This document shows, one piece after another, positions 1-17,667 of a stretch of 32,000 bases of DNA (within the stretch, counting starts at the first letter, position 1; each line of letters opens with the position of its first letter). A program made the position numbers and the translations under genes. The stretch is taken from the NCBI GenBank assembly GCA_023818895.1, contig JAMWCX010000002.1, positions 330,001 through 362,000 on the forward strand, written 5' to 3'. The stretch comes from Candidatus Omnitrophota bacterium. GTDB taxonomy: Bacteria > Omnitrophota > Gorgyraeia > 2-01-FULL-45-10. The notes beneath the pieces were generated by a model. It was not told the origin of the DNA. It saw only the letters and a list, made by a program, of their open reading frames with translations, and searched no databases.

Positions 1-3000
1 AAGGAAGTCCGCCTGGAGATCGGCTGACGCCACAAGGGCCTCATGTATATCCGCCATGTGCGAAAGCGCACCGGTAAAATCGCTCACGCCATAACTTCCG
101 CTATTGGCGACTATATAACTTGCCACGCCTGATAAGATAGCGCGGTAATTGTCGCTCTGGACCGAGGCGGTCGTGTCAGGAGTCACGCCATAGACAGTGT
201 TGAAATCGGCCCTCAAACTGGCATCCGCCAGAAGCGCCTGGTGTATGTCCACTATGTATGGCACTCCGTTAAGTATATCAGTGACGGTAATTCCTGGATT
301 AGCGAGAACATAAGCTCCGATGCCGGAAAGAACAGTCCTATAATCTTCACTGGTGACGGTGGCCGTGGTGTCAGCCGTCGTGTTATACGCGATGTTGAAA
401 TCCGCCCTCAGGCCCGGATCGGCCAGAAGCGCGGCATGTATATCCTGCATATAAGGAATGGCACCCAAAATATCATCTATAGTGGTGCCGGCGTTGGCCA
501 GTATGTAACTGGCTATGCCAGAGAGCGCGTAGCGGTAGTTTTCGCCGGTTATATTGGCTGTGGTGTCGGCCGTTACACTATATATAACCTCAAAGTCCAC
601 TCTCAAAGCGGCATCCGCAAGAAGCGCCGCGTGTAGATCGGCCATGATGGGAAGCGCGTCCAGAAGATCGGAGGTCGTAAGGCCATTATCCAGAATATAG
701 GCAGCCATTCCGGCGAGCGCGTAGCGGTAAGATTCTGTTGTAACATTTGCTGTAGTATCAGCGACGACATTATACACAACGGTGAAGTCCGCCTGAAGAT
801 CGGCATCGGCAAGAAGGGCCGCGTGCAGATCCGCCATTACTGGTATCGCATTAAGTATATCGTTAGCAGTCAGCCCCTCGTCGAGAACATAGCTTGCGAT
901 GCCTGAAAGGGCATAGCGATATGCCTCGGTAGTGACGTTTGCGCCTGAGTCGGCTATAGTATTATAGACAGTATTAAAGTCGGCTCTTAAGCCGGCGTCG
1001 GCAACCAGGGCCTGATGGATATCGGCCATGATGGGTATGGCGCTCAGGATATCATTTATTGTCATAGGAGGATTGTCTAAAACATAGCTTGCGATCCCAG
1101 AAAGTGCGTAGCGGTAAGATTCGGTGGTCACGGATGGTGTAGTATCCGCGGTGACGTTATATACGACGTTGAAGTCCGCGCGCAAAGACGCATCCGCAAG
1201 AAGCGCGGCGTGTATATCTGCCATCGGCGTCAGTGCGCCGACAAAGTCGCCTACCGTATAGCCGGCGTTATCGAGGATATAATCAGCGGTGCCGGAAAGC
1301 AGATTCCTATAATTTTCGTTTGTCACAGGATCCTGGTTAGCCGGCGCTATGCCGTAAATAACCTCAAAATCATTCTGTATATCAGCTGACGCGGTGATGG
1401 CGGCGTCGAGGTCTGCCATGATGGGAAGCGCCTGCGTAAACCGCAGGACCGTGTAACCGGGTGTTGTCACGATGTAACGCGCAATACCGGAAAGCGCATT
1501 TGCATAATCAGGGTTATTTACCGGGTCCTGGTCGGCGACCGCTATGCCATATATAGTCTCGAAGTCAGCTTGAAGATCCGGATCCGCTGAAATAGCGGCG
1601 TGCAGATCATCTATAATAGGAAGGCTTGCCAGGAAGTCATTCACGGTCATCGGAGGATTCGCAAGAATGTAATTGGCCACACCCGAAAGTATATTACGAT
1701 AGTCAGCGTTCGTAACCGGGTCCTGGTCGGCGACCGCTATGCCGTAGACAGAGGCAAAATCCTCTCCCACCCCTGTAGGATCTGCGGCAAGCGCCTCGTG
1801 AAGATCGGCCATGAGCTCAAGCGCATCCATGAATATAGCTACGGTATATCCGGCGTTATTCAGGATAAAGCTCGCAATACCAGAAAGGTTAAAGCGGTAG
1901 GCATCATTCGTAATGGGATCCTGGTCGGCCGGCGCAATGCCGTATATTGTCTCGAAATCGGCCTGCAGAAGAGCATCTGCCTGGAGGGCTTCATGAACAT
2001 TTTCCATGACCGGTAACTCAGCGGTAAAATCTGCCACGCTATATGGCGGATTGTCAATAATGTAACTGGCCACACCAGAAAGGATATTGCGGTAGTCAGC
2101 ATTCGTAACCGGGTCTTGGTTGGCAACCTCTATACCGTATATCGTCTCAAAGGCACTCTGAACATTGATATCAGCGGAGATAGCTTCATCGAGATCCGCC
2201 ATTATTGGAAGAGCCGACACAAAATCGGACACCGTATATGTACCAGCGCTTCCCAATATATAACTTGCCACTCCGGAAAGAGCGTTTCTATAATTATCCG
2301 ATGTTACATTTGGCGTGGTATCAGGATCGACGCCGTATATGGCGTTGAAATCCGCTCTCAAAGTAGCGCTGGCGAGAAGCTCGGCATGAATATCCGCGAT
2401 ATAGGGAACGGCGTCAAGGATATCGTTAAAATCGAGCGAATTGGCCAGAGCGTAGCTTGCGATACCTGCCAGGACATTACGGTAACCGGTGCTTGTGACA
2501 TTCGGAGTAGTATCGGCTGTCGTATTATAAACTATATTGAAGTCAGCCCTTAAGGCAGGGTCGGCAAGTAAGGCTGCGTGGATATCCGCCATGATGGGAA
2601 GCGCGTCTAAAAGATCGGTGTATGTCATCGGAGGATTATCCAGCACATAGCTTGCCATTCCGGCTAAAGCGTAGCGATAGGATTCGGTGGTGACGTTAGG
2701 CGTGGTGTCCGCCGTGACGTTATTTATCGTCTCAAAGTCAGCCCTTAAGGCAGGGTCAGCAAGTAAGGCTGCGTGGATATCCGCCATGATGGGAACACTA
2801 TTAAGAAACGCGGCCGCTGTCATAGGCGGATGGCTTGCTATATAACTTGCGATGCCTGAGAGCGTAAAGCGGTAATCGTCGCTTGTCTCAGGGTCAGCTA
2901 CATATGTGACATTGTACATGCTCTCGAAGTCAGCTCTTAAGGCTGCGTTGGACGTCAGGCCTTCATGTAGATCAGCCATCGTGACAAGTTCGACTTTAAA

Positions 3001-3580
3001 GTCCTCTATATCGTATCCTATGGTATTAGACGCGATGTATCCTGCAATACCCTGTATAGTTGAAAGATAGTCAGGGTCGTTCATGTTGGCTTCGAGGACC
3101 TGATCGGCAACAGCTACGCCATAGATTAGCTCAAAATCCGCCCGCAGCGTCGGATACGCAACATCATCAAGCGCGTTGTGAACAGCCATGGCGCCGTTAA
3201 GGCCGGCGATGTATGTTGCAAGATTATAGCCTGTCCCGTTAACTACGCCTGCCAGCCAGCCGCGATATGCGGGGTTATTAACAGGGTTCTGGTTTATAGG
3301 AGCGTAGTTCGAAATAGCCGCGACTATACTTTGAAGCGAATTATCAATTATAGCCTGGTGAAGATCTGCGGATGCACCGAGCTCGTAAATAAAATCATCG
3401 ACAGTATAATAATCGGGCTTCGTATAGTCATCGTGTTCGGATATGTATCCTGCTATTCCGACAAGTATCGACATGTAGTCATTATTACTCAGCACCTGAT
3501 TTGAAACTGCGGTACCGTAAAGAATCTGGAAATCACTCTGAAGGCCATGCGCGATGATCTCTTCGTGTATCTCTATCGCA
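1..3580 (-). repeat. In-frame tandem coding repeat, unit 192-198 nt (64-66 aa), about 18 units in window, continuing past the left edge
   Basis: Recurring unit L(R/Q)ADF..(V/I)Y(N/G)....D..P.VT...YR..LSG(I/V)ASY(V/I)L.N....T..D.L.A.P(I/V)MAD(I/L)HAALLAD. Anchors such as gccatgatggg recur at about 641, 1025, 1417, 2589, 2784. A 60-nt stretch at 2541-2600 recurs at 2736-2795 with one mismatch (offset 195). The 28-nt ccgggtcctggtcggcgaccgctatgcc occurs at 1521-1548 and 1716-1743 (offset 195). Confidence 0.9.
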
Positions 3581-5976
3581 AGGACCGAGCCTGAACCGCC
3601 AGCGAGTATACCGGGCAGCGCAAGATCTCCGGCCGCGGTTATCGTGATATTGGTTATCCTGCCAGAGCCATCTGTAGTGACTGTAATATAGCCGTCCGTA
3701 ACCCATTCATTGCGAAGATTATCGTTGGTAAAAAGCAAGATCGCCGCGTTGACTGCCGCTTCAGCCCCTATTCCGTAACCATTGAACTTACCGACAAGGT
3801 AATCGAGCACGGCAAAGGCGGTCTGACCATAAGTGGTAACGCTGATAGCATCCGCGCCTATAGCGGCATCCCGAAGACCGGTAGCAAACATCTTCTGTAA
3901 ATAGACATAAATTCTGTCCTGGATAGCAAATCCACTTGCCGAATACGTATGGTTATCGATAACGAGGTTCGGCATAAGAGCCTCAAACATGGTACCTTCC
4001 CATGATGGTATATAGTGGAAGGTGTCGCTTCCTATCGTATAGTCGTAAACGCCGTTAGACGGAATCTGGGCCTGCCATGTCCAGTCTTCCGGATAAGCGG
4101 TGACCATCCTGTCCCATAACGCCGCGGGGATGGTGCTGCCTGTCTTACCTATGGCAATAAGAATTGTCGGGCGTATTTCGGTATATATATTTCCATAATA
4201 GGATGTTGTAAGAGTGCTTGTATCCGGATCAGCACCTGTGGCAAGAAGTCCCGCTGTGGTATTATATAAACTGTTAAAATTCATAGCATTGAAAAGCGCG
4301 TCAGCGTTTGTCCTGATAGCGCCTCCATATGCCTGCCGAACGACAAGCAACGCCGAGGCAAGCCAGCCATTATCGACTGTAGATATGAACTTTTCGCTTG
4401 CGGTAGAGGCAGAGGGCGGGTTGGTTGTAAAACTGTAATAATTATGGAAAAGACCGTTCCACTTGTCGAGAGTAGCCAGTGTTGCCAGGCAGTTAGTAAT
4501 ACGAGTTTGGGCGGTAGCACTGTCGATCAGGTTAAGCTCATCCGCCGCTACCACGCTCATTAGATACAGAGCTATGTCTGTTATAGAGGTATAATTGGCA
4601 ACGCTTCCTGCCGCGGTGCGCCTGTCCGGCGGAAGCCAATAGGTGCCCGCGTTAGTCGTGTCAGCGAAATAATTCCATGTGCTCTGCGCGTAACCCAAAA
4701 GCGTCGCTTTTTGAAGATCTGTAAGAGCCGAGGTATCAAGCTGCGCGCCGGTAGGGTCGGTCAGTATACCAGAATAAGCCTTGTTAAGTCTTCCTCTTGA
4801 AATAATAAGTGGGTTACTACCCATGAAATAGTCCTGTATGCATCCATTATTAAGGGCATTTGCAATGGACACGAGGATACATCCCTGCGACAGAGTAAGA
4901 TACACTTGAGCCACGTCATTATTAGTCGCGTTGACGGAATCGAGAAAACCATAAGTGCCGGTCATGCCGGATATGCCGCTTAAGTCGCCAATATTAGCCA
5001 TCGCCTCGGCCGGCGCAACGTCAAGAGCCAGGAAACTCGCATATGGTGTTACAACGCCTGATTCATTCAGGATCCACGCGCCGTGGCTCATACCGAGCGG
5101 CGCGTAATAATCACGATATGTCGAATCATCGGAAGGATCAGTACACGAGGACATTCCCCATACACTCAGGCCCTGCGAAGAGGTATTTATATTGATGACA
5201 CCTTCGGCCACAAGAGCTTCCCTTAGACTCGCATCGCCAAAAAGCTGAAGGGCTATGCGCTCAGCCGCCCACTGATCCAAACTTGCGGCCATCATCGCCT
5301 GTATGAGATTATACATATCGCCGGCTGCGACGTGGCCGTATTCTGTAAGGTTAACGTCCGTTATCACGCTACCGGATAAGGTGGTTGTGATAAAACGGGC
5401 ATCGAGCCATAGCTGGCGAAAAGCGGGATCAGTGAAGATAAAGTCTGCATATGCGTCATCAGTCCCATTATTGGGTATTCCGGCCGCCGCAAGTTCATCG
5501 GCGAATGAGACCATATTCGGTATGGCTATATTGCCGTTTGCGGTTATCGTTATCTGTGTAGGGTCATTTGTGTCATTTGACGGCTGTATAGAGAGGTATC
5601 CGGCGCTCGCCCAGCGTATGCGTTTCGCGTCGTCATAGTATAAGTATTCGCCTATGTAGCTTCCCATTCCTATGGCGCTCAGCTGATTTGCTAGCCTTAC
5701 AAGCATGTCATAGACCGCGACGCGGCCGTATGCGGTAAGGGTCCATGTCAAAGCGCCGTCAGATACTATGAAACCGGCGTTCTGCCAGTTTGTCCTGGCT
5801 CCGGCATCGTTAAAAATCGCCCATGCCCAATAATCGGCAAGATATGTCGGGTCTCCAGCAGGAATACCCGCCGCAATAAGCTCTTGCCTAAAAGACTCTT
5901 GGTCAGCAAGCGCCGCATGGGTTGTAACCATTACAAACAACATCACAAGACACACCAAACCGACTATTTTTTTCAT
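1..5976 (-). CDS. Giant secreted protein, 3' end beyond window (at least 1,992 aa): signal peptide, duplicated small N-terminal modules, (alpha/alpha)6 glycoside-hydrolase-like region, then tandem 64-66-aa repeats
   Basis: Not in the supplied ORF track. Reading plus-strand triplets in register with position 1, none of tta/cta/tca (minus-strand stops) occurs in 1..5976. ATG at 5976-5974, GGAGGG at 5985-5990. N-terminus MKKIVGLVCLVMLFVMVTTHAALADQESF looks like a signal peptide. Motif blocks: PLGMSHGAWILNESGVVTPY (5041-5100); TYGFLDSVN..YLTLSQGCILVSIA (4861-4980); YTSITDIALYLMSVVAADELNLI (4501-4620); TVDNGWLASALLVV (4321-4380); SWEGTMFEALMPNLV (3961-4020). All track ORFs in 241..5638 lie in other frames. 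Confidence 0.85.
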   Translation of the reverse strand, partial: MKKIVGLVCLVMLFVMVTTHAALADQESFRQELIAAGIPAGDPTYLADYWAWAIFNDAGARTNWQNAGFIVSDGALTWTLTAYGRVAVYDMLVRLANQLSAIGMGSYIGEYLYYDDAKRIRWASAGYLSIQPSNDTNDPTQITITANGNIAIPNMVSFADELAAAGIPNNGTDDAYADFIFTDPAFRQLWLDARFITTTLSGSVITDVNLTEYGHVAAGDMYNLIQAMMAASLDQWAAERIALQLFGDASLREALVAEGVININTSSQGLSVWGMSSCTDPSDDSTYRDYYAPLGMSHGAWILNESGVVTPYASFLALDVAPAEAMANIGDLSGISGMTGTYGFLDSVNATNNDVAQVYLTLSQGCILVSIANALNNGCIQDYFMGSNPLIISRGRLNKAYSGILTDPTGAQLDTSALTDLQKATLLGYAQSTWNYFADTTNAGTYWLPPDRRTAAGSVANYTSITDIALYLMSVVAADELNLIDSATAQTRITNCLATLATLDKWNGLFHNYYSFTTNPPSASTASEKFISTVDNGWLASALLVVRQAYGGAIRTNADALFNAMNFNSLYNTTAGLLATGADPDTSTLTTSYYGNIYTEIRPTILIAIGKTGSTIPAALWDRMVTAYPEDWTWQAQIPSNGVYDYTIGSDTFHYIPSWEGTMFEALMPNLVIDNHTYSASGFAIQDRIYVYLQKMFATGLRDAAIGADAISVTTYGQTAFAVLDYLVGKFNGYGIGAEAAVNAAILLFTNDNLRNEWVTDGYITVTTDGSGRITNITITAAGDLALPGILAGGSGSVLAIEIHEEIIAHGLQSDFQILYGTAVSNQVLSNNDYMSILVGIAGYISEHDDYTKPDYYTVDDFIYELGASADLHQAIIDNSLQSIVAAISNYAPINQNPVNNPAYRGWLAGVVNGTGYNLATYIAGLNGAMAVHNALDDVAYPTLRADFELIYGVAVADQVLEANMNDPDYLSTIQGIAGYIASNTIGYDIEDFKVELVTMADLHEGLTSNAALRADFESMYNVTYVADPETSDDYRFTLSGIASYIASHPPMTAAAFLNSVPIMADIHAALLADPALRADFETINNVTADTTPNVTTESYRYALAGMASYVLDNPPMTYTDLLDALPIMADIHAALLADPALRADFNIVYNTTADTTPNVTSTGYRNVLAGIASYALANSLDFNDILDAVPYIADIHAELLASATLRADFNAIYGVDPDTTPNVTSDNYRNALSGVASYILGSAGTYTVSDFVSALPIMADLDEAISADINVQSAFETIYGIEVANQDPVTNADYRNILSGVASYIIDNPPYSVADFTAELPVMENVHEALQADALLQADFETIYGIAPADQDPITNDAYRFNLSGIASFILNNAGYTVAIFMDALELMADLHEALAADPTGVGEDFASVYGIAVADQDPVTNADYRNILSGVANYILANPPMTVNDFLASLPIIDDLHAAISADPDLQADFETIYGIAVADQDPVNNPDYANALSGIARYIVTTPGYTVLRFTQALPIMADLDAAITASADIQNDFEVIYGIAPANQDPVTNENYRNLLSGTADYILDNAGYTVGDFVGALTPMADIHAALLADASLRADFNVVYNVTADTTPSVTTESYRYALSGIASYVLDNPPMTINDILSAIPIMADIHQALVADAGLRADFNTVYNTIADSGANVTTEAYRYALSGIASYVLDEGLTANDILNAIPVMADLHAALLADADLQADFTVVYNVVADTTANVTTESYRYALAGMAAYILDNGLTTSDLLDALPIMADLHAALLADAALRVDFEVIYSVTADTTANITGENYRYALSGIASYILANAGTTIDDILGAIPYMQDIHAALLADPGLRADFNIAYNTTADTTATVTSEDYRTVLSGIGAYVLANPGITVTDILNGVPYIVDIHQALLADASLRADFNTVYGVTPDTTASVQSDNYRAILSGVASYIVANSGSYGVSDFTGALSHMADIHEALVASADLQADFL

Positions 5977-6046
5977 TTTAGCAACCCTCCAAAGTTTATC
6001 CGATTGTTTTGACGCAAGGTAGGAAATTGTTTTCGAAAATATTTTC

Positions 6047-6094
6047 ATAAATTAAAAGCCTGGTCACCTACTTTTCAGCTTCGGTAACCAGGCT
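6047..6094 (-). terminator. Intrinsic terminator-like hairpin inside the leader of the giant gene
   Basis: Minus strand: AGCCTGGTTACC (6094-6083), 14-nt loop, GGTGACCAGGCT (6068-6057). This gives a 12-bp stem with one G-U pair, followed by TTTAATTTAT. It lies about 80 nt upstream of the ATG at 5976 and about 250 nt downstream of the preceding gene's stop. Confidence 0.6.
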
Positions 6095-6164
6095 GTCTAA
6101 AACTATATTAGACCCTTGGCTTTGCCGTGAACCAGAACTCACTTTGCTCGTTAGGTTCACGATC
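6078..6164 (-). promoter_or_regulatory. Candidate c-di-GMP-I (GEMM-I)-like riboswitch aptamer in the 5' leader of the giant gene
   Basis: Minus strand: GAUCGUGAACCUAACGAGCAAAGUGAGUUCUGGUUCACGGCAAAGCCAAGGGUCUAAUAUAGUUUUAGACAGCCUGGUUACCGAAGC. From memory, the Vc2 GEMM-I blocks are GGCAAAC, a 16-nt hairpin, ACGCAAAGCC, a long hairpin, then AGC..GGUUACCGA. Here the blocks are GCAAAG, a 16-nt hairpin GUGAG[UUCUGG]UUCAC, ACGGCAAAGCC (one extra G), a hairpin CCAAGGGUCUAA/UUAGACAGCCUGG, then GGUUACCGAAG. The 3' part (6081-6100) overlaps the terminator 5' arm. No covariance-model search was run. Confidence 0.4.
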
Positions 6165-9373: not shown

Positions 9374-10432
9374 CTAAAAAAAGTAGCTGAGGCCGCCGGA
9401 ATACATAGTGTCAACGTACCTTTCTAAAGGTTCGTTGGTATGGTTTTCGGAATGTGAATAATTCACGAAGGCGGAAAGATTATCTGTCATGTCGTATATA
9501 AGCGAACCTGTGACGATATAAAGGTTGTCCCTTTGCAGCGCTTCACTGTCGCTCACCTGGCGCTCATAATAGTTACGGCGCTGATAATAAAAACCGGCGG
9601 TGCCAAAAAGCCTCTTTGAAAGAATCGCGGTCAAGGCGCACCCTGTCCTATTGGCCCAGTAATCGTAGTAATCCATGTATTGGTAGTTCGATTCATTGAC
9701 GTAGTAGTCGTTAAGAACACGCAGCTTGACTTTCTTGCCTATGTATATGCCCAGCTCATACCTGCAGGTATTTCTGAGATCGGCCCTGAGTTCAGAGCTC
9801 AGCGTATAATTACTTAAGCGTACCTTTCTGTCGAAGTAGCTTCGATATTCGAGGCGATACATCGCCCGTTGATATAGCCATTTTGTTACCGTGTGCTTTA
9901 AGGATACGACAAAGGAATTGCCTAAGTAATTTCCTTCCCTGTTATGAGGATACCACATGGACTCGAAAACATAGCCCGCGCTAAAGTCCAAATCCTTGGC
10001 GATGTTATGGTCTAAATACACATCGGCTACGCCGTCAAATATGTTGACGTCTGTTACACGAAAATAGTTAACGTTTAGCGCGTTCACACCAAACCTGACA
10101 TCGGTCTTGCCAAGGCTTTCTGCAACAAGCGGATACTTGAAATGGAGATCGAACATCTCCTGTGTATAATTATCTGCTTTGTGAGTGGAGTCCAGAAGGG
10201 GGTTGGAATCTACTCCTTGGGTAACACTTGTGGTTATCTCCACTTTAAGAAGCTCTTTGGAAGGTTTTTTGGCCGGCGGGGAAACCGGCACTTTGGGAGC
10301 AGCGTATAAGTATTTTTTTATGTCCTGGTCTTCTACGGTCTTGACATCGGCACGAGAATGAATAGCTGTAAAAGTTGTAAAGAAAATCACTAAAAGCGTT
10401 GTACAAAATATCTTGCAGGATCCTTCCTCCAT
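9374..10432 (-). CDS. Predicted outer-membrane beta-barrel protein, family not recognised
   Basis: Hydrophobic N-terminal signal-like segment. Y/N/G-rich alternating pattern throughout. C-terminus ...YSGGLSYFF ends in an aromatic residue, typical of OMP beta-barrels. Confidence 0.6.
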   Translation of the reverse strand: MEEGSCKIFCTTLLVIFFTTFTAIHSRADVKTVEDQDIKKYLYAAPKVPVSPPAKKPSKELLKVEITTSVTQGVDSNPLLDSTHKADNYTQEMFDLHFKYPLVAESLGKTDVRFGVNALNVNYFRVTDVNIFDGVADVYLDHNIAKDLDFSAGYVFESMWYPHNREGNYLGNSFVVSLKHTVTKWLYQRAMYRLEYRSYFDRKVRLSNYTLSSELRADLRNTCRYELGIYIGKKVKLRVLNDYYVNESNYQYMDYYDYWANRTGCALTAILSKRLFGTAGFYYQRRNYYERQVSDSEALQRDNLYIVTGSLIYDMTDNLSAFVNYSHSENHTNEPLERYVDTMYSGGLSYFF

Positions 10433-10479
10433 CCTCTTTTGCCTTTTATACCCTTCTTAAAAACTTTTTCGAGATAAAA

Positions 10480-11514
10480 TCATTCTCCTTTATTAATTGT
10501 ACCGCCTGAAGTATCACCTGAGATGCCGCTTGCGTCTGAAACCGATGTGGTTTTCGATTCTATCGGCTCTCTCGCCTCTTCTTTCGCGGCTATCTGCGAT
10601 ATATCACGGGTCTCCTGTATATCCTGCTTCTTGGCTTCAAGCCTTTCGATCTGCGTCTCTTCTTTCGCTATGCGGTCCAACCTTGAATACGACCTATCTA
10701 TCGTGGATTCCGCTTGTTCTATAATAGATTGTGTCTTCTCGATGGTCCTTCCCGCTCTTTCCTCTATAGCGCCAGCGGTCTTTTCCGCTCTTTCTTCAGC
10801 CGCGCTTTCAGTCGGGGTTTCAATTCTTTTTTCTGTCGCCTTTTCCGGAGTCGAAGTGGCGGCTTCTTTCGCTATTTCCGGCGAGCGGCCTATAACCTCT
10901 TGCCTGAAACCGTTCCATCTGTCGATATCAGCGCGCGAAATCTGTTCGAGTCTCTCCGGCCTTTCGAACTTGTCAACCACAGCGCGGAATCCTTCGCTTA
11001 CTGTAAGCTCTCCTTCCATTACGCTGCCATCCCTATTGATGCCCTTGACATAAATAGCGTTCTCGTAAGAACTAAATATAGCCGTTTCTCCATCAGTCTT
11101 GCTGCCCCACCCTGTACCGCGAGCGCCGCTTATTCCGGCAGGCGTTCTTATCTCGAAGCTCGAGCCTTTAGGGATATTCCTCATCAAGGCAAGCACTTCT
11201 CCGTTCAGAAGTTCAATACTGCATGGCGTCTTCCCATGCACTATAACCACGTCAGAATTCTCCGCTATGCCAATGACGTTAGTCTTATCGGCCAGAAACA
11301 CTATATCAACGGCCTCATTCGCGGCTGTCCTTATCCTGTCCCCGTTCGAAACAGCCATCGCTGGCGCGCAGCTTATCCAGCTGCCTGAATCTCTTTTCAT
11401 TATTTTGGGGCTACCTCTTACGGACATGATTTCAGGCGAGGCGTCTTGCGCGAACGTAAGCGTGTAGGACACGAAGGTCAACACCGCTGTTATAAAAATT
11501 ATCTTAAGTCGCAT
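10480..11514 (-). CDS. Secreted FecR-domain protein with E/K/R/T-rich low-complexity C-terminal tail
   Basis: Signal peptide MRLKIIFITAVLTFVSYTLTFAQD. FecR-like core (..W..C.....VSNGDRIRTAANEAVDIVF...ELLNGEVLAL.....FEIRTPAGISGARGTGW). C-terminal ~140 aa is charged and probably coiled or disordered (EKRIETPTESAAEERAEKTAGAIEERAGRTIEKTQ...). Confidence 0.75.
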   Translation of the reverse strand: MRLKIIFITAVLTFVSYTLTFAQDASPEIMSVRGSPKIMKRDSGSWISCAPAMAVSNGDRIRTAANEAVDIVFLADKTNVIGIAENSDVVIVHGKTPCSIELLNGEVLALMRNIPKGSSFEIRTPAGISGARGTGWGSKTDGETAIFSSYENAIYVKGINRDGSVMEGELTVSEGFRAVVDKFERPERLEQISRADIDRWNGFRQEVIGRSPEIAKEAATSTPEKATEKRIETPTESAAEERAEKTAGAIEERAGRTIEKTQSIIEQAESTIDRSYSRLDRIAKEETQIERLEAKKQDIQETRDISQIAAKEEAREPIESKTTSVSDASGISGDTSGGTINKGE

Positions 11515-11565
11515 AATCTCTCCTTTTTTAGCCTACCTAAAGTGTTCCTAATTTTCCACCATTAC

Positions 11566-12189
11566 TTAATCTTTTCCCTTTATCAAAAGCTTCCAGGGAT
11601 GCGCTTTAAGGTCCTGACTGAAATCCTTGAAATTAATAGCGGTCTGCTCTATATTCATCATTATGCTGTCCAGGCGCGGCCTGTTATCTGTAACCGCTCC
11701 GTTGATATTTTCGGCGAGGTTCTTTATCTGGCCAAGCGTTTTATCCAGGGCATCCGCTATAGCATCGGCCTTCTTCCAGAATTTTCTGACCTCGACTGGG
11801 TCCTCGCTTGCCACCGTACCACCATTTTTAATAAACGGTTTATCCGCAGACCCAGGCGTAAGCCCAACATAAGCGTCGCCTATCATGCCAGAGGTGGCTA
11901 TGAACGCTATCGCGTCCTCATGGACTTTGAAGGCCGGTTTTACAGCAAGCTCCAGCATTATCTTTGTTTCGGGTTCGTACTTGAAACCTATCTTGGTGAC
12001 ACGGCCAACCTCTATGCCGGCTAACTTCACGATGGCATCCTCCTTGATTCCGTCGGCGTGATTGAAATAGGTATATATCTTGTAAGGGGCGCCGGTAGTG
12101 CCGGTGGTCTTAATATAAAAAATCATGGTTGCAAGTATCGCGGCAACGACTACTATGCCGGTCTTGACCTCGTTAGTAAGGATCTTCAT
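11566..12189 (-). CDS. mlaD: MCE/MlaD-family substrate-binding protein of an Mla-like ABC transporter
   Basis: N-terminal TM anchor followed by an MCE domain (YKIYTYFNHADGIKEDAIVKLAGIEVGRVTKI). Sits directly downstream of the mlaF/mlaE homologues. Confidence 0.85.
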   Translation of the reverse strand: MKILTNEVKTGIVVVAAILATMIFYIKTTGTTGAPYKIYTYFNHADGIKEDAIVKLAGIEVGRVTKIGFKYEPETKIMLELAVKPAFKVHEDAIAFIATSGMIGDAYVGLTPGSADKPFIKNGGTVASEDPVEVRKFWKKADAIADALDKTLGQIKNLAENINGAVTDNRPRLDSIMMNIEQTAINFKDFSQDLKAHPWKLLIKGKD

Positions 12190-12236: not shown

Positions 12237-13049
12237 TCACGCTACAAGCGTCTCCAGATAATCATCCTTCTGCTGGAAAAATTTTATAGGGCCATCGGGT
12301 GATCCATTTATGAACTGTTGAACCATCTCATTCTTGGAATGCCTTATTTCATCTGGCGTACCAACCTCAAGAACCCTGCCTTCGTAAAGCATAGCCACTC
12401 TGTCAGCTATAGAGAACACGCTTTTCATATCATGCGTTACCACAACGGATGTTATGTTAAGCTTTTTGGAAAGATCGAGTATCAGCTTATCTATGACACC
12501 GGCGACGATAGGGTCGAGACCGGCTGTAGGCTCATCATAGAAGACTATCTCGGGATCCATCGCTATGGCGCGCGCAAGTCCGACTCTTTTTTTCATACCG
12601 CCAGAAAGCTGGCTCGGCATCAGGTCCTCAAATCCTCTTAAACCAACGAGCTCCAGCTTCATTTTAACTACTATGTCCCGCACGCTTTTATCAAGTTTTG
12701 TGTGCTCTTTAAGCCCCAGCGCGACATTCTCGCCGACTGTCATGGAATCGAAAAGGGCGGACGACTGAAAAGACATACCTATTTTGCGCCTTAAGTGGTC
12801 CATCTCATCATCGTTAAGGGTGCTAAGATCCTTGCCCAAAAGATATATCTTTCCGGAATCGGGTTTGAGCGATCCGATGATGTGACGCAGGAAAGTCGAT
12901 TTTCCGCATCCGGAGCCTCCCATAATGACAAAGGTTTCGCCTTTGTAGATCTCAAGGCTGATACCATTCAATACCGTCCTGCCGCCGAATTTCTTAACTA
13001 CGTTGTCTGCTTTTATCACTACCTCTTTTTCGGATTCTTTCGGATTCAT
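12237..13049 (-). CDS. mlaF: ABC transporter ATP-binding protein, MlaF-like
   Basis: Walker A GGSGCGKST, signature LSGGMKKRVGLARAIA, Walker B IVFYDEPTAGLD, H-loop VVVTHD. Confidence 0.9.
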   Translation of the reverse strand: MNPKESEKEVVIKADNVVKKFGGRTVLNGISLEIYKGETFVIMGGSGCGKSTFLRHIIGSLKPDSGKIYLLGKDLSTLNDDEMDHLRRKIGMSFQSSALFDSMTVGENVALGLKEHTKLDKSVRDIVVKMKLELVGLRGFEDLMPSQLSGGMKKRVGLARAIAMDPEIVFYDEPTAGLDPIVAGVIDKLILDLSKKLNITSVVVTHDMKSVFSIADRVAMLYEGRVLEVGTPDEIRHSKNEMVQQFINGSPDGPIKFFQQKDDYLETLVA

Positions 13050-13050
13050 A

Positions 13051-13893
13051 TCATTTCCCTGCGAAATAAAATACGCCTGTTAGTATACAATCAAAAAGTA
13101 TTATAAGTATAAAGCTTGTCACAACCGAAAGCGTTGTGGACTTACCCACTCCCTCCGCGCCGCCTTTTGTGTTCAAGCCCATGTAACAGCCGATCATAGA
13201 TATGATAAGGGCAAAGGTCCCGCTCTTGACTAGCCCTGTCCACACATCTTTCCATGCCATATATTTGAACGAAAAAGTAATGTAGCGGTAGGGATCGAGA
13301 TCGAGACTGAAAACACCTACGAGGAATCCTCCGAATATTCCAACTAAATCCGCCAGTATCGTAAGACAGGGGAGCATTACAAGAAGCGCAAGAAAGCGCG
13401 GTATGACAAGAAATCTGATGGGGTTCAGCGCCATTGTCTCCAGCGCCTCTATCTGCTCGCTTACCTTCATCGTGCCAAGTTCGGCGGCTATGGCGGCGCC
13501 GACGCGGCCTGTGACGACAAGAGCTGTGAGAACGGGCCCCAGCTCTCTGGCCAAGCTTATCGCGACCATAGGGGCAACATATATATTAGCCCCGAATCTC
13601 GAAAGCTGGTATGCCGATTGCATCGCTATGACGATGCCGGTAAAGAAGGCAACAAACATCGCTATGACGAGCGATCCCACGCCGGCAAATACCATCTGAT
13701 GAAATATGCTGTCGCTTTTTACAAATTTATTTTTCAGCGGGCCGAATATCAGCCACCATATAGTGTCAAAAAGAAGACCTAAGACTTCGACGGTTCCCTT
13801 CCATGCGCCCAATACTACGCTTCCTATCTTGGCAAAAAAGTTTACTATCACCGTTACCCCCATCAATGCCTTATGCGAAAGTGGAGATGGCAT
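13051..13893 (-). CDS. mlaE: ABC transporter permease, MlaE-like
   Basis: Multi-TM protein with the MlaE/TtgB-type block GAAIAAELGTMKVSEQIEALETMALNPIRFLVIPRFLA. The alternative ATG at 13863 would remove the 23-nt overlap with the STAS gene. Confidence 0.88.
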   Translation of the reverse strand: MPSPLSHKALMGVTVIVNFFAKIGSVVLGAWKGTVEVLGLLFDTIWWLIFGPLKNKFVKSDSIFHQMVFAGVGSLVIAMFVAFFTGIVIAMQSAYQLSRFGANIYVAPMVAISLARELGPVLTALVVTGRVGAAIAAELGTMKVSEQIEALETMALNPIRFLVIPRFLALLVMLPCLTILADLVGIFGGFLVGVFSLDLDPYRYITFSFKYMAWKDVWTGLVKSGTFALIISMIGCYMGLNTKGGAEGVGKSTTLSVVTSFILIILFDCILTGVFYFAGK

Positions 13894-14206
13894 CCTGCTC
13901 GTCGGCCATTATTTCGAATAGCTTCTCCAACTTGGTTATCTCGAAAAGGCTCTTTATTTTGGAAGACAGGTTCGTGAGCCTAAGGCGGCCGCCGTAAGAA
14001 CGCATATTCTTGAGTATCTCCACGAGCGTCGCAAGCCCTGATGAATCAACATAAGTCACTTTGGAAAGATTAACAACTATCTTAGGCGTCTTGGATGATA
14101 TCAGCTTATCAAACACCTTCTTTATAGACGGGCTCGAATTTATATCGATCTCGCCCTCCACGTAGCATACCGTTAATCCGTTTTTGTTCTCGATCTTCAC
14201 CGCCAT
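13871..14206 (-). CDS. STAS-domain protein (anti-sigma-factor antagonist type, SpoIIAA/RsbV-like)
   Basis: 111 aa. Carries the conserved phospho-acceptor context VTYVDSSGLATLV. AAGGAG RBS upstream of the ATG at 14206. Confidence 0.85.
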   Translation of the reverse strand: MAVKIENKNGLTVCYVEGEIDINSSPSIKKVFDKLISSKTPKIVVNLSKVTYVDSSGLATLVEILKNMRSYGGRLRLTNLSSKIKSLFEITKLEKLFEIMADEQDAISTFA

Positions 14207-14227
14207 AGCTATGTCTCCTTTTCCCCT

Positions 14228-14692
14228 TTATTTAAGATTCTTCACCATCGTTATCCTTCTGCCGCCAGCCGTGTATTCGACCTTGTCCATAAGCTTCTTT
14301 ATAAGATAGACTCCCCTGCCGGAGTTCTTAAATATATGCGCTTCACTTGTGGGGTCCACAAGCTTCGACTGGTCAAACCCTTTACCTTCATCTTCTATCT
14401 CGATGTGGAGGTTGTCATCCTCGACCCAGGAGGCGATCTTTACCAAACGGCGCCTGTCGCAATTATTGCCGTGGACGATCGCATTCCTAACGGCCTCTTC
14501 TATGCACAGCTTTATATCAAAGATTTTGCCTTCATCGAGCACATAATCCACTATTTTTGACAACACAGCATTCGACACCTTTCTTATAAACCGTGTCTCG
14601 CTCGGGATCTTTAGCTCAGTCCTTCTGCTTGCCTCTTTATGGTTCTTTAAAAATCCCAATGGCCCTAATCTTATCATATCGAGCGTCCACAA
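14228..14692 (-). CDS. RsbW/SpoIIAB-like serine protein kinase (HATPase_c anti-sigma-factor type)
   Basis: N-box EEAVRNAIVHGN, G1 EIEDEGKGFD, G2 NSGRGVYLIKKLMD. The track start at 14692 is a TTG inside accA, so the start is uncertain. The in-frame ATG is at 14677. Confidence 0.8.
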   Translation of the reverse strand: MWTLDMIRLGPLGFLKNHKEASRRTELKIPSETRFIRKVSNAVLSKIVDYVLDEGKIFDIKLCIEEAVRNAIVHGNNCDRRRLVKIASWVEDDNLHIEIEDEGKGFDQSKLVDPTSEAHIFKNSGRGVYLIKKLMDKVEYTAGGRRITMVKNLK

Positions 14693-15599
14693 GTTTGTCT
14701 TTGGAGATATTTTTTAGACCTGCGAGATCCTTTTTTATAGTCTTTTTTATATTCTCGGCCGCCTCATGGGGATCCCGGTGGGCTCCACCGAGCGGCTCTT
14801 TGATTATACCATCAATGATCTTCATTTCAAGAAGATCCTTGGCGGTAAGCTTTAGAGCGGCGGCCGCTTCAGGAGATTTAGAACGCTCCTTCCAAAGTAT
14901 CGCGGCGCATCCCTCCGGAGATATTACCGAATAATACGCGTTCTCAAGAACGTACACCCTGTCTCCCACCCCTATACCAAGAGCGCCGCCGGAGCCGCCT
15001 TCACCTATCACAAAAACTATTATCGGCACCCTCAAATGCGCCATCTCTCTAAGATTATAGGCTATCGCCTCAGCCTGTCCGCGCTCCTCCGCGCCGATAC
15101 CTGGATACGCGCCCGGCGTGTCGATGAAGGTAACTATGGGCAGGTCAAACTTCTCGGCCATGTACATTACCCTCATGGCCTTTCTATATCCTTCCGGATT
15201 GGCACAGCCGAAATTCCTCTCCAGGTTCTCCTTGGTATCCTTGCCCTTTTGATGACCTATTACGACTATCTTCTCCCCGTTCAGCTTTGCCAGCCCGCAT
15301 ACCATGGCCTTGTCATCAGAAAAATGCCTGTCGCCGTGTATCTCGATGAAATCGGTCATCATCATCTCGATATAATCCAGCGTGTAAGGCCTTTTGGGAT
15401 GACGAGCTATCTGGACCCTTTGCCAGGGGGTGAGGTTATCGTAGACATCCTTTTTTATCTGGGCCAGCTTCTCTTCGAGATGTCTTATCTCTCCGGAGAT
15501 ATCAATATCCTTGTGGGATGTAAAACCCTTGAGTTCCTCTATCTTACGCTCAAGGTCTATTATAGGCTTTTCGAATTCGAGTCCAGGAATAGCCGCCAT
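14637..15599 (-). CDS. accA: Acetyl-CoA carboxylase carboxyltransferase alpha subunit
   Basis: Full-length AccA-like sequence: LTPWQRVQIARHPKRPYTLDYI, FIDTPGAYPGIGAEERGQAEAIA, GEGGSGGALGIGVGD. Confidence 0.93.
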   Translation of the reverse strand: MAAIPGLEFEKPIIDLERKIEELKGFTSHKDIDISGEIRHLEEKLAQIKKDVYDNLTPWQRVQIARHPKRPYTLDYIEMMMTDFIEIHGDRHFSDDKAMVCGLAKLNGEKIVVIGHQKGKDTKENLERNFGCANPEGYRKAMRVMYMAEKFDLPIVTFIDTPGAYPGIGAEERGQAEAIAYNLREMAHLRVPIIVFVIGEGGSGGALGIGVGDRVYVLENAYYSVISPEGCAAILWKERSKSPEAAAALKLTAKDLLEMKIIDGIIKEPLGGAHRDPHEAAENIKKTIKKDLAGLKNISKDKLVDARYDKIRAIGIFKEP

Positions 15600-17127: not shown

Positions 17128-17667
17128 GTGAATAAGTTAGCCTGTCTTTTCGTGTTAGGATTATTGACAATTATTTCTTGCGGTTTTTCAATCATCTGCG
17201 GCGCTGCCGAGCTTGAACAAATGTCCAACAAGCAGCCTATAAAGGTATATCTGGCTTCTTTTTCAAATGAATCTGGCGAGAAAGATCTAAAGGTCGATGA
17301 ATTGAAGCAAGAAGTGGAGAAGGCTTTCGCGAACAGAAAATCTGTCCGTTTCGAAATCGTAAAATCACCTGCCGAAAGCGATGTGCAGGTTTTCGGTATA
17401 ATAAAGAAATTCCAATATCTGACCAAAGATCCGGTCAGGCCTGCCATAAGCGTCGCCCTTATGGCGCTTGATGCCGCAATCACAGAAAATTTCGTGGAAA
17501 TGGATGTTCAATTTACGATAATAAACACGAAGACGGGCGCTTTGATATGGAAGGATAACGTGGTTAGGTTTCTAAAAAGATCGATGACGCGGGCACAGAG
17601 TATTCCTTTGATCTACGATAAAATCGCACGCGCGTTCGTGTCGAAATCGTTCGGCAAGGGAAGGTAG
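17128..17667 (+). CDS. Predicted lipoprotein of unknown function; the only plus-strand gene I accept
   Basis: GTG start with GGAGGG RBS. Signal peptide with lipobox LTIISC. Preferred over the antisense 17112..17483 ORF, which has no signal or RBS. Confidence 0.6.
   Translation: MNKLACLFVLGLLTIISCGFSIICGAAELEQMSNKQPIKVYLASFSNESGEKDLKVDELKQEVEKAFANRKSVRFEIVKSPAESDVQVFGIIKKFQYLTKDPVRPAISVALMALDAAITENFVEMDVQFTIINTKTGALIWKDNVVRFLKRSMTRAQSIPLIYDKIARAFVSKSFGKGR

Follow-up and report, generated by a model that had tools for sequence, protein, structure and literature searches.

A 32,000-nucleotide stretch of DNA from a Candidatus Omnitrophota bacterium (contig JAMWCX010000002.1, positions 330,001 to 362,000; hereafter the window) carries on its minus strand a packed train of five genes, encoding an RsbW/SpoIIAB-like kinase, a single-domain STAS protein, and the MlaE, MlaF and MlaD components of a lipid ATP-binding cassette (ABC) transporter. 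A gene for a CHASE2-PP2C membrane phosphatase lies 4.5 kb past the stop codon of the STAS gene. We propose, with a probability of roughly 45%, that this is a complete serine-phosphorylation partner-switching set wired to the MlaEFD transporter instead of to a sigma factor, and that the module gates the transporter by docking of the STAS protein on MlaF. Comparative genomics makes functional coupling of the phospho-switch module with the transporter highly probable. The proposal is built on the observed gene content, the integrity of the motifs, the compactness of the operon, its conservation through rearrangement and the lack of a neighbouring sigma factor gene. The genes and sites concerned are listed in transcription order.

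14692–14228, minus strand: ORF of the RsbW/SpoIIAB-like kinase (HATPase_c_2), 154 amino acids from TTG 14692, overlapping the 3′ end of accA
14206–13871, minus strand: STAS protein, single domain, SpoIIAA/RsbV type, 111 amino acids
14050–14033, minus strand: V53-D54-S55-S56-G57-L58 motif of the STAS protein, read from the sequence
14036–14047, minus strand: codons of D54-S55-S56-G57, likewise read from the sequence; predicted phosphosite, with Ser55 as the predicted acceptor
13893–13051, minus strand: mlaE permease (PF02405, TIGR00056), likely start ATG 13863
13049–12237, minus strand: mlaF ABC ATPase, with LSGGM signature and C-terminal extension
12240–12311, minus strand: MlaF C-terminal extension, about residues 247–270 and including Y264, L268 and V269, from alignment to E. 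coli MlaF
12189–11566, minus strand: mlaD (MCE domain, PF02470), short form of 207 amino acids
9373–7460, minus strand: CHASE2-PP2C membrane phosphatase (PF05226 and PF07228)

The kinase gene probably begins at ATG 14677 or TTG 14659 rather than at TTG 14692; with any of the three, the start of the kinase gene overlaps accA at its 3′ end. The first ATG of mlaE and the STAS stop codon overlap by 23 nt, and the second (13863) leaves a 7-nt gap and gives a better fit to the MlaE proteins of relatives, which have 262–268 amino acids. A preliminary description of this DNA had placed a STAS protein with a DSSGL motif behind an RsbW-type kinase and against, or overlapping, mlaE, with a CHASE2-PP2C phosphatase about 4 kb downstream; all of these elements are present in that arrangement on the minus strand. 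It had also reported no separate MlaB or MlaC. This agrees with our inspection of the large open reading frames (ORFs) of the window, none of which is an MlaB-type, MlaC, MlaA or sigma factor gene.

A survey of how often RsbW/RsbV pairs occur in mla operons, suggested in the preliminary description, was run within Omnitrophota-type loci and returned a single exception. About 120 loci were covered: 35 species-level loci from GTDB genomes (STAS identity 49–89%), seven context loci, which are the neighbourhoods of closer and more divergent STAS homologues, and 80 metagenome loci, from a scan that kept only matches of at least 55% identity. Among the 35 + 7 genome and context loci, wherever the sequence extends far enough, the STAS gene directly follows the kinase gene and is itself directly followed by mlaE-mlaF-mlaD. 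Where metagenome loci left room for the neighbouring gene, all 66 had the kinase and 59 of 60 had mlaE. The genes are tightly spaced, with median gaps of 17 nt (kinase–STAS), 15 nt (STAS–mlaE), 12 nt (mlaE–mlaF) and 29 nt (mlaF–mlaD).

Synteny extends over the entire folE-DUF212-ykuD-accA-...-HD-GYP region in the main clade, where conservation is therefore weak evidence by itself. Loci L025, L038, L040, L041/L043 and L042 have entirely different flanks, and the five genes are still contiguous. The gene upstream of the cassette is accA in the main clade, a DeoC aldolase gene in L038 and a CBS-CBS gene in L042; rubrerythrin/glutaredoxin genes occupy this place in L040, which lies on the complete Omnitrophota genome CP070807.1, and ftsA/radical-SAM genes in L041 and L043. 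L043 has also received insertions (10154–12060), one between mlaF and mlaD that encodes a 23S rRNA intervening-sequence protein, and others past mlaD that are nucleotidyltransferase and MazE-like (toxin-antitoxin-like) genes; no foreign gene separates kinase, STAS, mlaE and mlaF. The kinase-STAS-mlaEFD arrangement is far beyond chance. The phosphatase gene follows mlaD directly in many loci and a pair of FecR-domain and β-barrel genes (described below) in others. Because its position varies or it is missing, we regard kinase-STAS-mlaE-mlaF-mlaD as the invariant unit and the phosphatase as a frequent sixth member. The upstream neighbour accA, which is lipid-related, was considered as a functional partner and rejected, as it is not adjacent in the divergent lineages.

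A genome scan for relatives of the STAS protein returned Omnitrophota-type loci only, plus an unrelated Nostoc STAS protein at 30% identity, and a protein search from the most divergent STAS member returned only Omnitrophota. Loci L004, L008, L016, L019, L021, L027, L029, L032, L035 and L038 come from GenBank Third Party Annotation (TPA) assemblies titled “uncultured Planctomycetia/Planctomycetales bacterium”. They show Omnitrophota-type synteny and encode proteins 49–89% identical to those of the window; the labels are probably imprecise.

The STAS protein matches PF01740 (E = 3e-21) and scores 87.4 bits on the anti-sigma-factor antagonist model TIGR00377, above the cutoff of 53.45; the homologues in L038 and L041 score 83–90 bits. 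The solved structures nearest to it in sequence are TM1442, SpoIIAA and RsbV (E = 1e-13 to 1e-11), and MlaB chains in the same comparison reach just E = 0.002–0.05. An AlphaFold2 model based on 57 homologues (pLDDT 88.7) has the topology β1 β2 α1 β3 α2 β4 α3 β5 α4, which amounts to five strands and four helices, with β5 at residues 98–100 and α4 at residues 103–109. When the model was searched with Foldseek, SpoIIAA (1th8_B, TM-score 0.89) and RsbV took the top ranks, and E. coli MlaB (6xgy_B) appeared at rank 38 with a TM-score of 0.61. The phospho-serine motif DSSGL (14050–14033) is intact, as first described, and the longer string D54-S55-S56-G57-L58-A59-T60 is invariant in 57 diverse homologues; the phosphosite motif is likewise invariant in the surveyed loci. 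Ser55 aligns with chain position 58 of SpoIIAA 1th8_B. An ungapped alignment of STAS residues 44–92 with MlaB residues 41–89 sets Ser55 opposite MlaB Thr52. The protein thus shows the features sought in an antagonist: family score, full fold, a conserved D-S-x-G serine at the start of helix 2, and an adjacent HATPase_c_2 kinase.

The kinase matches PF13581 (HATPase_c_2; E = 7e-26), and its best PDB matches are RsbW (6m36_A) and SpoIIAB, with E values of about 1e-10. The N box (EEAVRNAIVHGN), G1 (DEGKGF) and G2 (GRGVYL) motifs are conserved across loci. On the RsbW/SpoIIAB equivalog models (NF003144, TIGR01925 and TIGR01924) the kinase reaches 51–62 bits, below the cutoffs of 135–155. An adjacent cognate sigma factor gene, a mark of RsbW/SpoIIAB, was found neither in the window nor in related loci, and six different contexts hold no sigma factor gene within 6–10 kb. 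The phosphatase combines a CHASE2 domain (PF05226; E = 2e-48) with a SpoIIE/RsbU-type PP2C domain (PF07228; E = 7e-50). Its predicted topology runs from an N-terminal transmembrane segment through a periplasmic CHASE2 domain and a transmembrane cluster to a cytoplasmic PP2C domain at about residues 400–637, and the metal-binding aspartate motifs GGDLYD, DVSGKG, TDGITE and DDMT can be read from the translation. Judged by the known roles of these families, the kinase would phosphorylate the STAS protein and the PP2C phosphatase would dephosphorylate it.

The transporter genes form an Mla/MCE core, with an MlaE-family permease, an LSGGM ABC ATPase and an MCE protein in one cluster. MlaE matches PF02405 (E = 6e-81) and scores 250 bits on TIGR00056, above the cutoff of 212. 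The best NCBIfam match of MlaF is PRK11831 (MlaF), at 249 bits against an equivalog cutoff of 441, and its best PDB matches, aligned over the full length, are the MlaF proteins of A. baumannii, P. aeruginosa and E. coli. MlaD matches PF02470 (E = 2e-16), reaches 85 bits on TIGR04430, below the cutoff, and has a single N-terminal transmembrane segment (residues 6–31). All three proteins therefore fall short of the proteobacterial equivalog level (PRK11831, TIGR04430 and NF033619). Such scores, together with the absence of MlaC and MlaA from the window, are expected of a non-proteobacterial MlaEFD. Across loci, MlaD is 178–240 amino acids long, with no MlaC or MlaA nearby. A short MlaD is reported as nearly confined to Proteobacteria by Grasekamp et al. 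(2023; PMC10665443).

The last 58 residues of MlaF align without gaps to residues 210–263 of E. coli MlaF, which puts Y264, L268 and V269 on E. coli Tyr261, Leu265 and Leu266. The C-terminal extension that holds them is conserved across the Omnitrophota loci. In E. coli, these three residues insert into the groove where MlaF meets MlaB; at the centre of this interface is Thr52 of MlaB, and the substitution T52E weakens binding (PMC7367683).

In the mechanism that we propose, the kinase would phosphorylate Ser55 of the STAS protein, and the membrane phosphatase would strip this phosphate once its periplasmic CHASE2 domain senses an envelope signal. The unphosphorylated STAS protein would dock on the MlaF helical subdomain in the manner of E. 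coli MlaB and stabilise or activate MlaFE. Phosphorylation of Ser55, at the centre of the interface, would then release the STAS protein and turn transport down. We favour the STAS protein as the docking partner because a STAS domain is the one partner of an Mla ATPase that is known from structures, and because Thr52 sits at the centre of the MlaF–MlaB interface and the MlaF of the window retains the docking triad. Contact of MlaF with the STAS protein, and not with the kinase, is speculative, as is the sign of the regulation. A wider version of the scheme is tentative, and we consider it possible rather than probable: a CHASE2 envelope signal would set the phosphorylation of a SpoIIAA-type STAS protein, which would dock on or leave MlaF and so gate the ABC lipid transporter throughout the phylum, with some lineages perhaps relaying the signal from the β-barrel through the FecR protein.

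A number of points weigh against docking of the STAS protein on MlaF. On the MlaB model NF033618, the protein scores 33.5 bits against a cutoff of 90. This match was rejected as a sign of MlaB affinity, as genuine SpoIIAA and TM1442, scanned as controls, themselves reach 27.0 and 29.1 bits. MlaB is a minimal STAS domain of four strands and three helices, with a short C-terminus that lacks the fifth strand and last helix (Kolich et al., PMC7367683). Because the MlaB-model score is generic and the protein has a strand and a helix that MlaB lacks, it stands outside the MlaB family; sequence and predicted fold identify it as a full-length SpoIIAA/RsbV-type antagonist. The suggestion of an MlaB-like subunit is thus only partly upheld: action on MlaF stays plausible, but the comparison with MlaB sequences and structures that had been proposed as a check groups the protein with SpoIIAA, RsbV and TM1442. 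Nor does the absence of MlaB and MlaC call for a stand-in. According to Grasekamp et al. (PMC10665443), MlaEFD alone is the ancestral and commonest form and works without a STAS subunit in most phyla, and lack of MlaB and MlaC is the rule outside Proteobacteria. Their absence here is therefore not anomalous and leaves no gap to fill, and we rejected the argument that a replacement is needed. That paper also describes a shortened MlaF C-terminal extension that is kept in Veillonella without MlaB, so the extension is not diagnostic and counts as weak evidence.

The comparative data add to these objections. The phosphatase is absent from the neighbourhood in L041 and L043. The sole exception to the conserved order, L102 (positions 1–1088 of a 1,088-nt metagenome contig), has neither the kinase nor mlaE; the end of accA is followed by an N-terminally truncated STAS gene and then by a zinc-ribbon-like ORF. 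This contig may be a deletion variant or an assembly chimera. Rate covariation was analysed by the mirror-tree approach over 41 non-redundant loci, with accA controlled for. MlaE, MlaF and MlaD covary with one another at 0.48–0.70, and the STAS protein with MlaF at 0.25. The approach does not discriminate here, since the expected STAS–kinase pair reaches only 0.16 and the STAS–accA control 0.52. Finally, in classical partner switching it is the kinase, not the antagonist, that holds the output protein.

This classical logic, canonical for RsbW/SpoIIAB systems, could apply here directly: the kinase would bind and inhibit MlaF or MlaE, the dephosphorylated STAS protein would capture the kinase, and the STAS protein would never touch MlaF. 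The closest matches of the kinase are indeed RsbW/SpoIIAB, and those of the STAS protein RsbV/SpoIIAA, some of them from structures of complexes, and the operon linkage fits such a switch as well as it fits a model with the STAS protein as output. We know of no earlier case in which an RsbW-type kinase binds an ABC ATPase. Mean distances are 0.50 for the STAS protein, 0.89 for the kinase and 0.28 for MlaF; within the cluster, conservation is lowest for the kinase, an odd trait in the holder of a highly conserved ATPase. The slower evolution of the STAS protein is what one would expect of a hub that contacts a larger number of partners than the kinase. Binding of a STAS protein to MlaF, moreover, is structurally documented (PMC7367683), and overall we judge control of the transporter through the kinase to be improbable.

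An output elsewhere sits at the upper end of what we would call unlikely. The set would control a distant sigma factor or another target, with mlaEFD merely co-transcribed as part of an envelope-stress unit, or Mla or lipid status would feed into the CHASE2 phosphatase. By sequence and fold, the pair are ordinary members of the anti-sigma-antagonist and anti-sigma-kinase families. Partner-switching genes are often unlinked from their targets, as in Chlamydia and the Pseudomonas HsbA systems. The window has HD-GYP and a riboswitch beside the cluster, and L041 and L043 have PilZ-PilZ-MshEN there; this recurrence of cyclic di-GMP (c-di-GMP) signalling genes could point to another target. Such an output has to be set against the lack of a sigma factor gene within 6–10 kb in six contexts and against a kinase that falls well short of equivalog level on the RsbW and SpoIIAB models; co-transcription alone also leaves the unbroken five-gene order amid reshuffled flanks unexplained. 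Chance adjacency kept by synteny inertia, with the kinase and STAS protein functionally unrelated to the transporter, could account for the main clade, where everything from folE to HD-GYP is syntenic. It is strongly disfavoured, to the point of being barely credible, by at least five lineages in which all flanks differ and the five genes remain contiguous and tightly spaced, and by the finding that the STAS clade occurs away from mlaE only once, on the short contig L102. The probability not taken up by gating through STAS docking or by these three alternatives is left open for outputs that we have not considered.

Several known systems share parts of this design. Like MlaFEDB of E. coli, A. 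baumannii and P. aeruginosa, the Omnitrophota operon encodes a small STAS protein and an MlaF with LSGGM, a C-terminal extension and a Tyr/Leu/hydrophobic triad at the same positions. A hydroxyl residue occupies the equivalent spot in the two STAS proteins, Thr52 in MlaB and Ser55 in Omnitrophota. The Omnitrophota protein, however, is predicted to be a full SpoIIAA-type domain with an invariant DSSG, whereas MlaB is a minimal domain of four strands and three helices. Its gene lies upstream of mlaE, whereas mlaB is at the end of the operon, and it comes with a kinase and usually a phosphatase, and with no mlaC or mlaA alongside. We know of no MlaB kinase. The Bacillus modules RsbV-RsbW-RsbU and SpoIIAA-SpoIIAB-SpoIIE use the same three families and the same phospho-serine motif, and the predicted STAS fold matches theirs closely. 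In Omnitrophota, unlike in these modules, there is no sigma factor gene beside the kinase, which precedes the antagonist and scores below the RsbW and SpoIIAB equivalog cutoffs; the operon runs on into an ABC transporter, and the phosphatase is membrane-bound and carries a periplasmic CHASE2 sensor.

Partner switches with outputs other than a sigma factor include Bordetella BtrU/BtrW/BtrV, Pseudomonas HsbR/HsbA and Chlamydia RsbU/RsbW/RsbV. In some of them the STAS protein itself is the output, and chlamydial RsbU also has a periplasmic sensor domain. Vibrio SypE/SypA is a further case (PMC10120452). These systems resemble the Omnitrophota set in that kinase, STAS protein and PP2C phosphatase serve something other than release of a neighbouring sigma factor; none of the Btr, Syp, Hsb and chlamydial Rsb systems is known to be embedded in an Mla/MCE transporter operon. 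In SulP/SLC26 proteins, too, a STAS domain is the cytoplasmic regulator of a membrane transporter, but there it forms one polypeptide with a secondary transporter, and no RsbW-type kinase is known to switch it. The similarity to the Omnitrophota STAS protein is at the level of fold only.

Phosphoregulation of MlaB was raised as an open possibility, without evidence, by Kolich et al. (2020, PMC7367683); with no MlaB kinase known in E. coli, it stayed at that. Grasekamp et al. (2023, PMC10665443) screened 1,083 genomes for STAS genes syntenic with mla genes, and their Supplementary Dataset 1 lists an “MlaB” by synteny for two of five Omnitrophica genomes; the entries, KJJ84113–84116 and KPK42235–42238, have the same STAS-MlaE-MlaF-MlaD accession order. 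Candidatus Omnitrophus magneticus has both STAS-linked and STAS-less MlaEFD paralogues. The passages of that text examined here mention neither kinase nor phosphatase, nor that the Omnitrophica STAS protein is of SpoIIAA type. Full-text literature searches for partner switching combined with MlaF or MlaE found none. The components are ordinary; the wiring is unreported and is conserved across the phylum.

Around the cassette, the window holds the following further features.

16533–15613, minus strand: LysM-YkuD transpeptidase, first in transcription order
15599–14637, minus strand: accA, second in transcription order, after the LysM-YkuD transpeptidase gene
14803–14830, minus strand: promoter-like site, TTGAAA, 16-nt spacer, TG, TATAAT, matching the consensus at 11/12 positions
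9374–11514, minus strand: FecR and barrel gene pair (counterparts at L038 18097–20168 and L042 14237–16333)
11514–10480, minus strand: FecR-domain envelope protein (PF04773; E = 9e-9)
10432–9374, minus strand: predicted outer-membrane β-barrel, 352 amino acids (AlphaFold2 model; no Pfam match)
7463–6348, minus strand: GAF-HD-GYP protein (HD at residue 235, HHE at 288, GYP at 296)

The promoter-like site, a pattern match only, falls within the 3′ part of accA, some 110 nt ahead of the kinase gene, and could be an internal promoter of the kinase-STAS-mla unit. The FecR-domain protein has a hydrophobic segment at residues 3–23, an N-terminal signal or anchor, and no cytoplasmic anti-sigma domain. 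The model of the 352-residue protein (pLDDT 82) identifies it as a 14-stranded outer-membrane β-barrel with a C-terminal YFF; its Foldseek matches are CymA, OmpG and FadL (TM-score about 0.5), and some homologues carry PF10082 (BBP2_2). The barrel gene is always paired with a FecR-domain gene. The pair is a variable accessory: some lineages have it between mlaD and the phosphatase gene, others a few kb downstream, and still others lack it. Its make-up recalls surface signalling of the FecA/FecR type, but with no extracytoplasmic function (ECF) sigma factor.

The GAF-HD-GYP gene directly follows the phosphatase gene and precedes a riboswitch, an order seen in many related loci; from its domains, the protein is likely to be a c-di-GMP phosphodiesterase. 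The riboswitch is of the c-di-GMP-I class (RF01051, 40.6 bits; 6080–6158, minus strand) and lies about 30 nt upstream of a giant ORF (1–6048, minus strand), which starts near 6048, leaves the window at its start and encodes more than 2,016 amino acids with a signal-peptide-like N-terminus. This arrangement suggests a c-di-GMP-controlled giant surface protein. Elsewhere, genes for a PilZ-PilZ protein and an MshEN-domain T2SS-E ATPase follow mlaD (L041 10504–12927; L043 12152–14580), and L042 encodes a REC-EAL protein 7 kb upstream of the cassette (80–1249). The presence of c-di-GMP genes beside the cassette may be chance, or may link the switch to c-di-GMP signalling. An ORF on the plus strand (17128–17667, 179 amino acids) has a lipoprotein-like signal (…LLTIISC) and no Pfam match, and occurs at the same position in L001 and L002.

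This operon bears on the post-translational regulation of Mla and other MCE lipid transporters. The kinase, the phosphosite and usually the phosphatase share the operon of the transporter throughout the phylum, which reduces the question of MlaB phosphoregulation to five or six small proteins that can be co-expressed. Should gating through the STAS protein prove wrong, the operon would still offer a clear example of partner switching linked to the envelope, in a phylum about which little is known. If it is right, partner switching would gain a new class of output, an ABC transporter, and the CHASE2 sensor would be tied to envelope lipid homeostasis. Proteobacterial MlaB, with its unexplained Thr52, may then be a stripped-down descendant or an analogue of such a switch from which the kinase has been lost.

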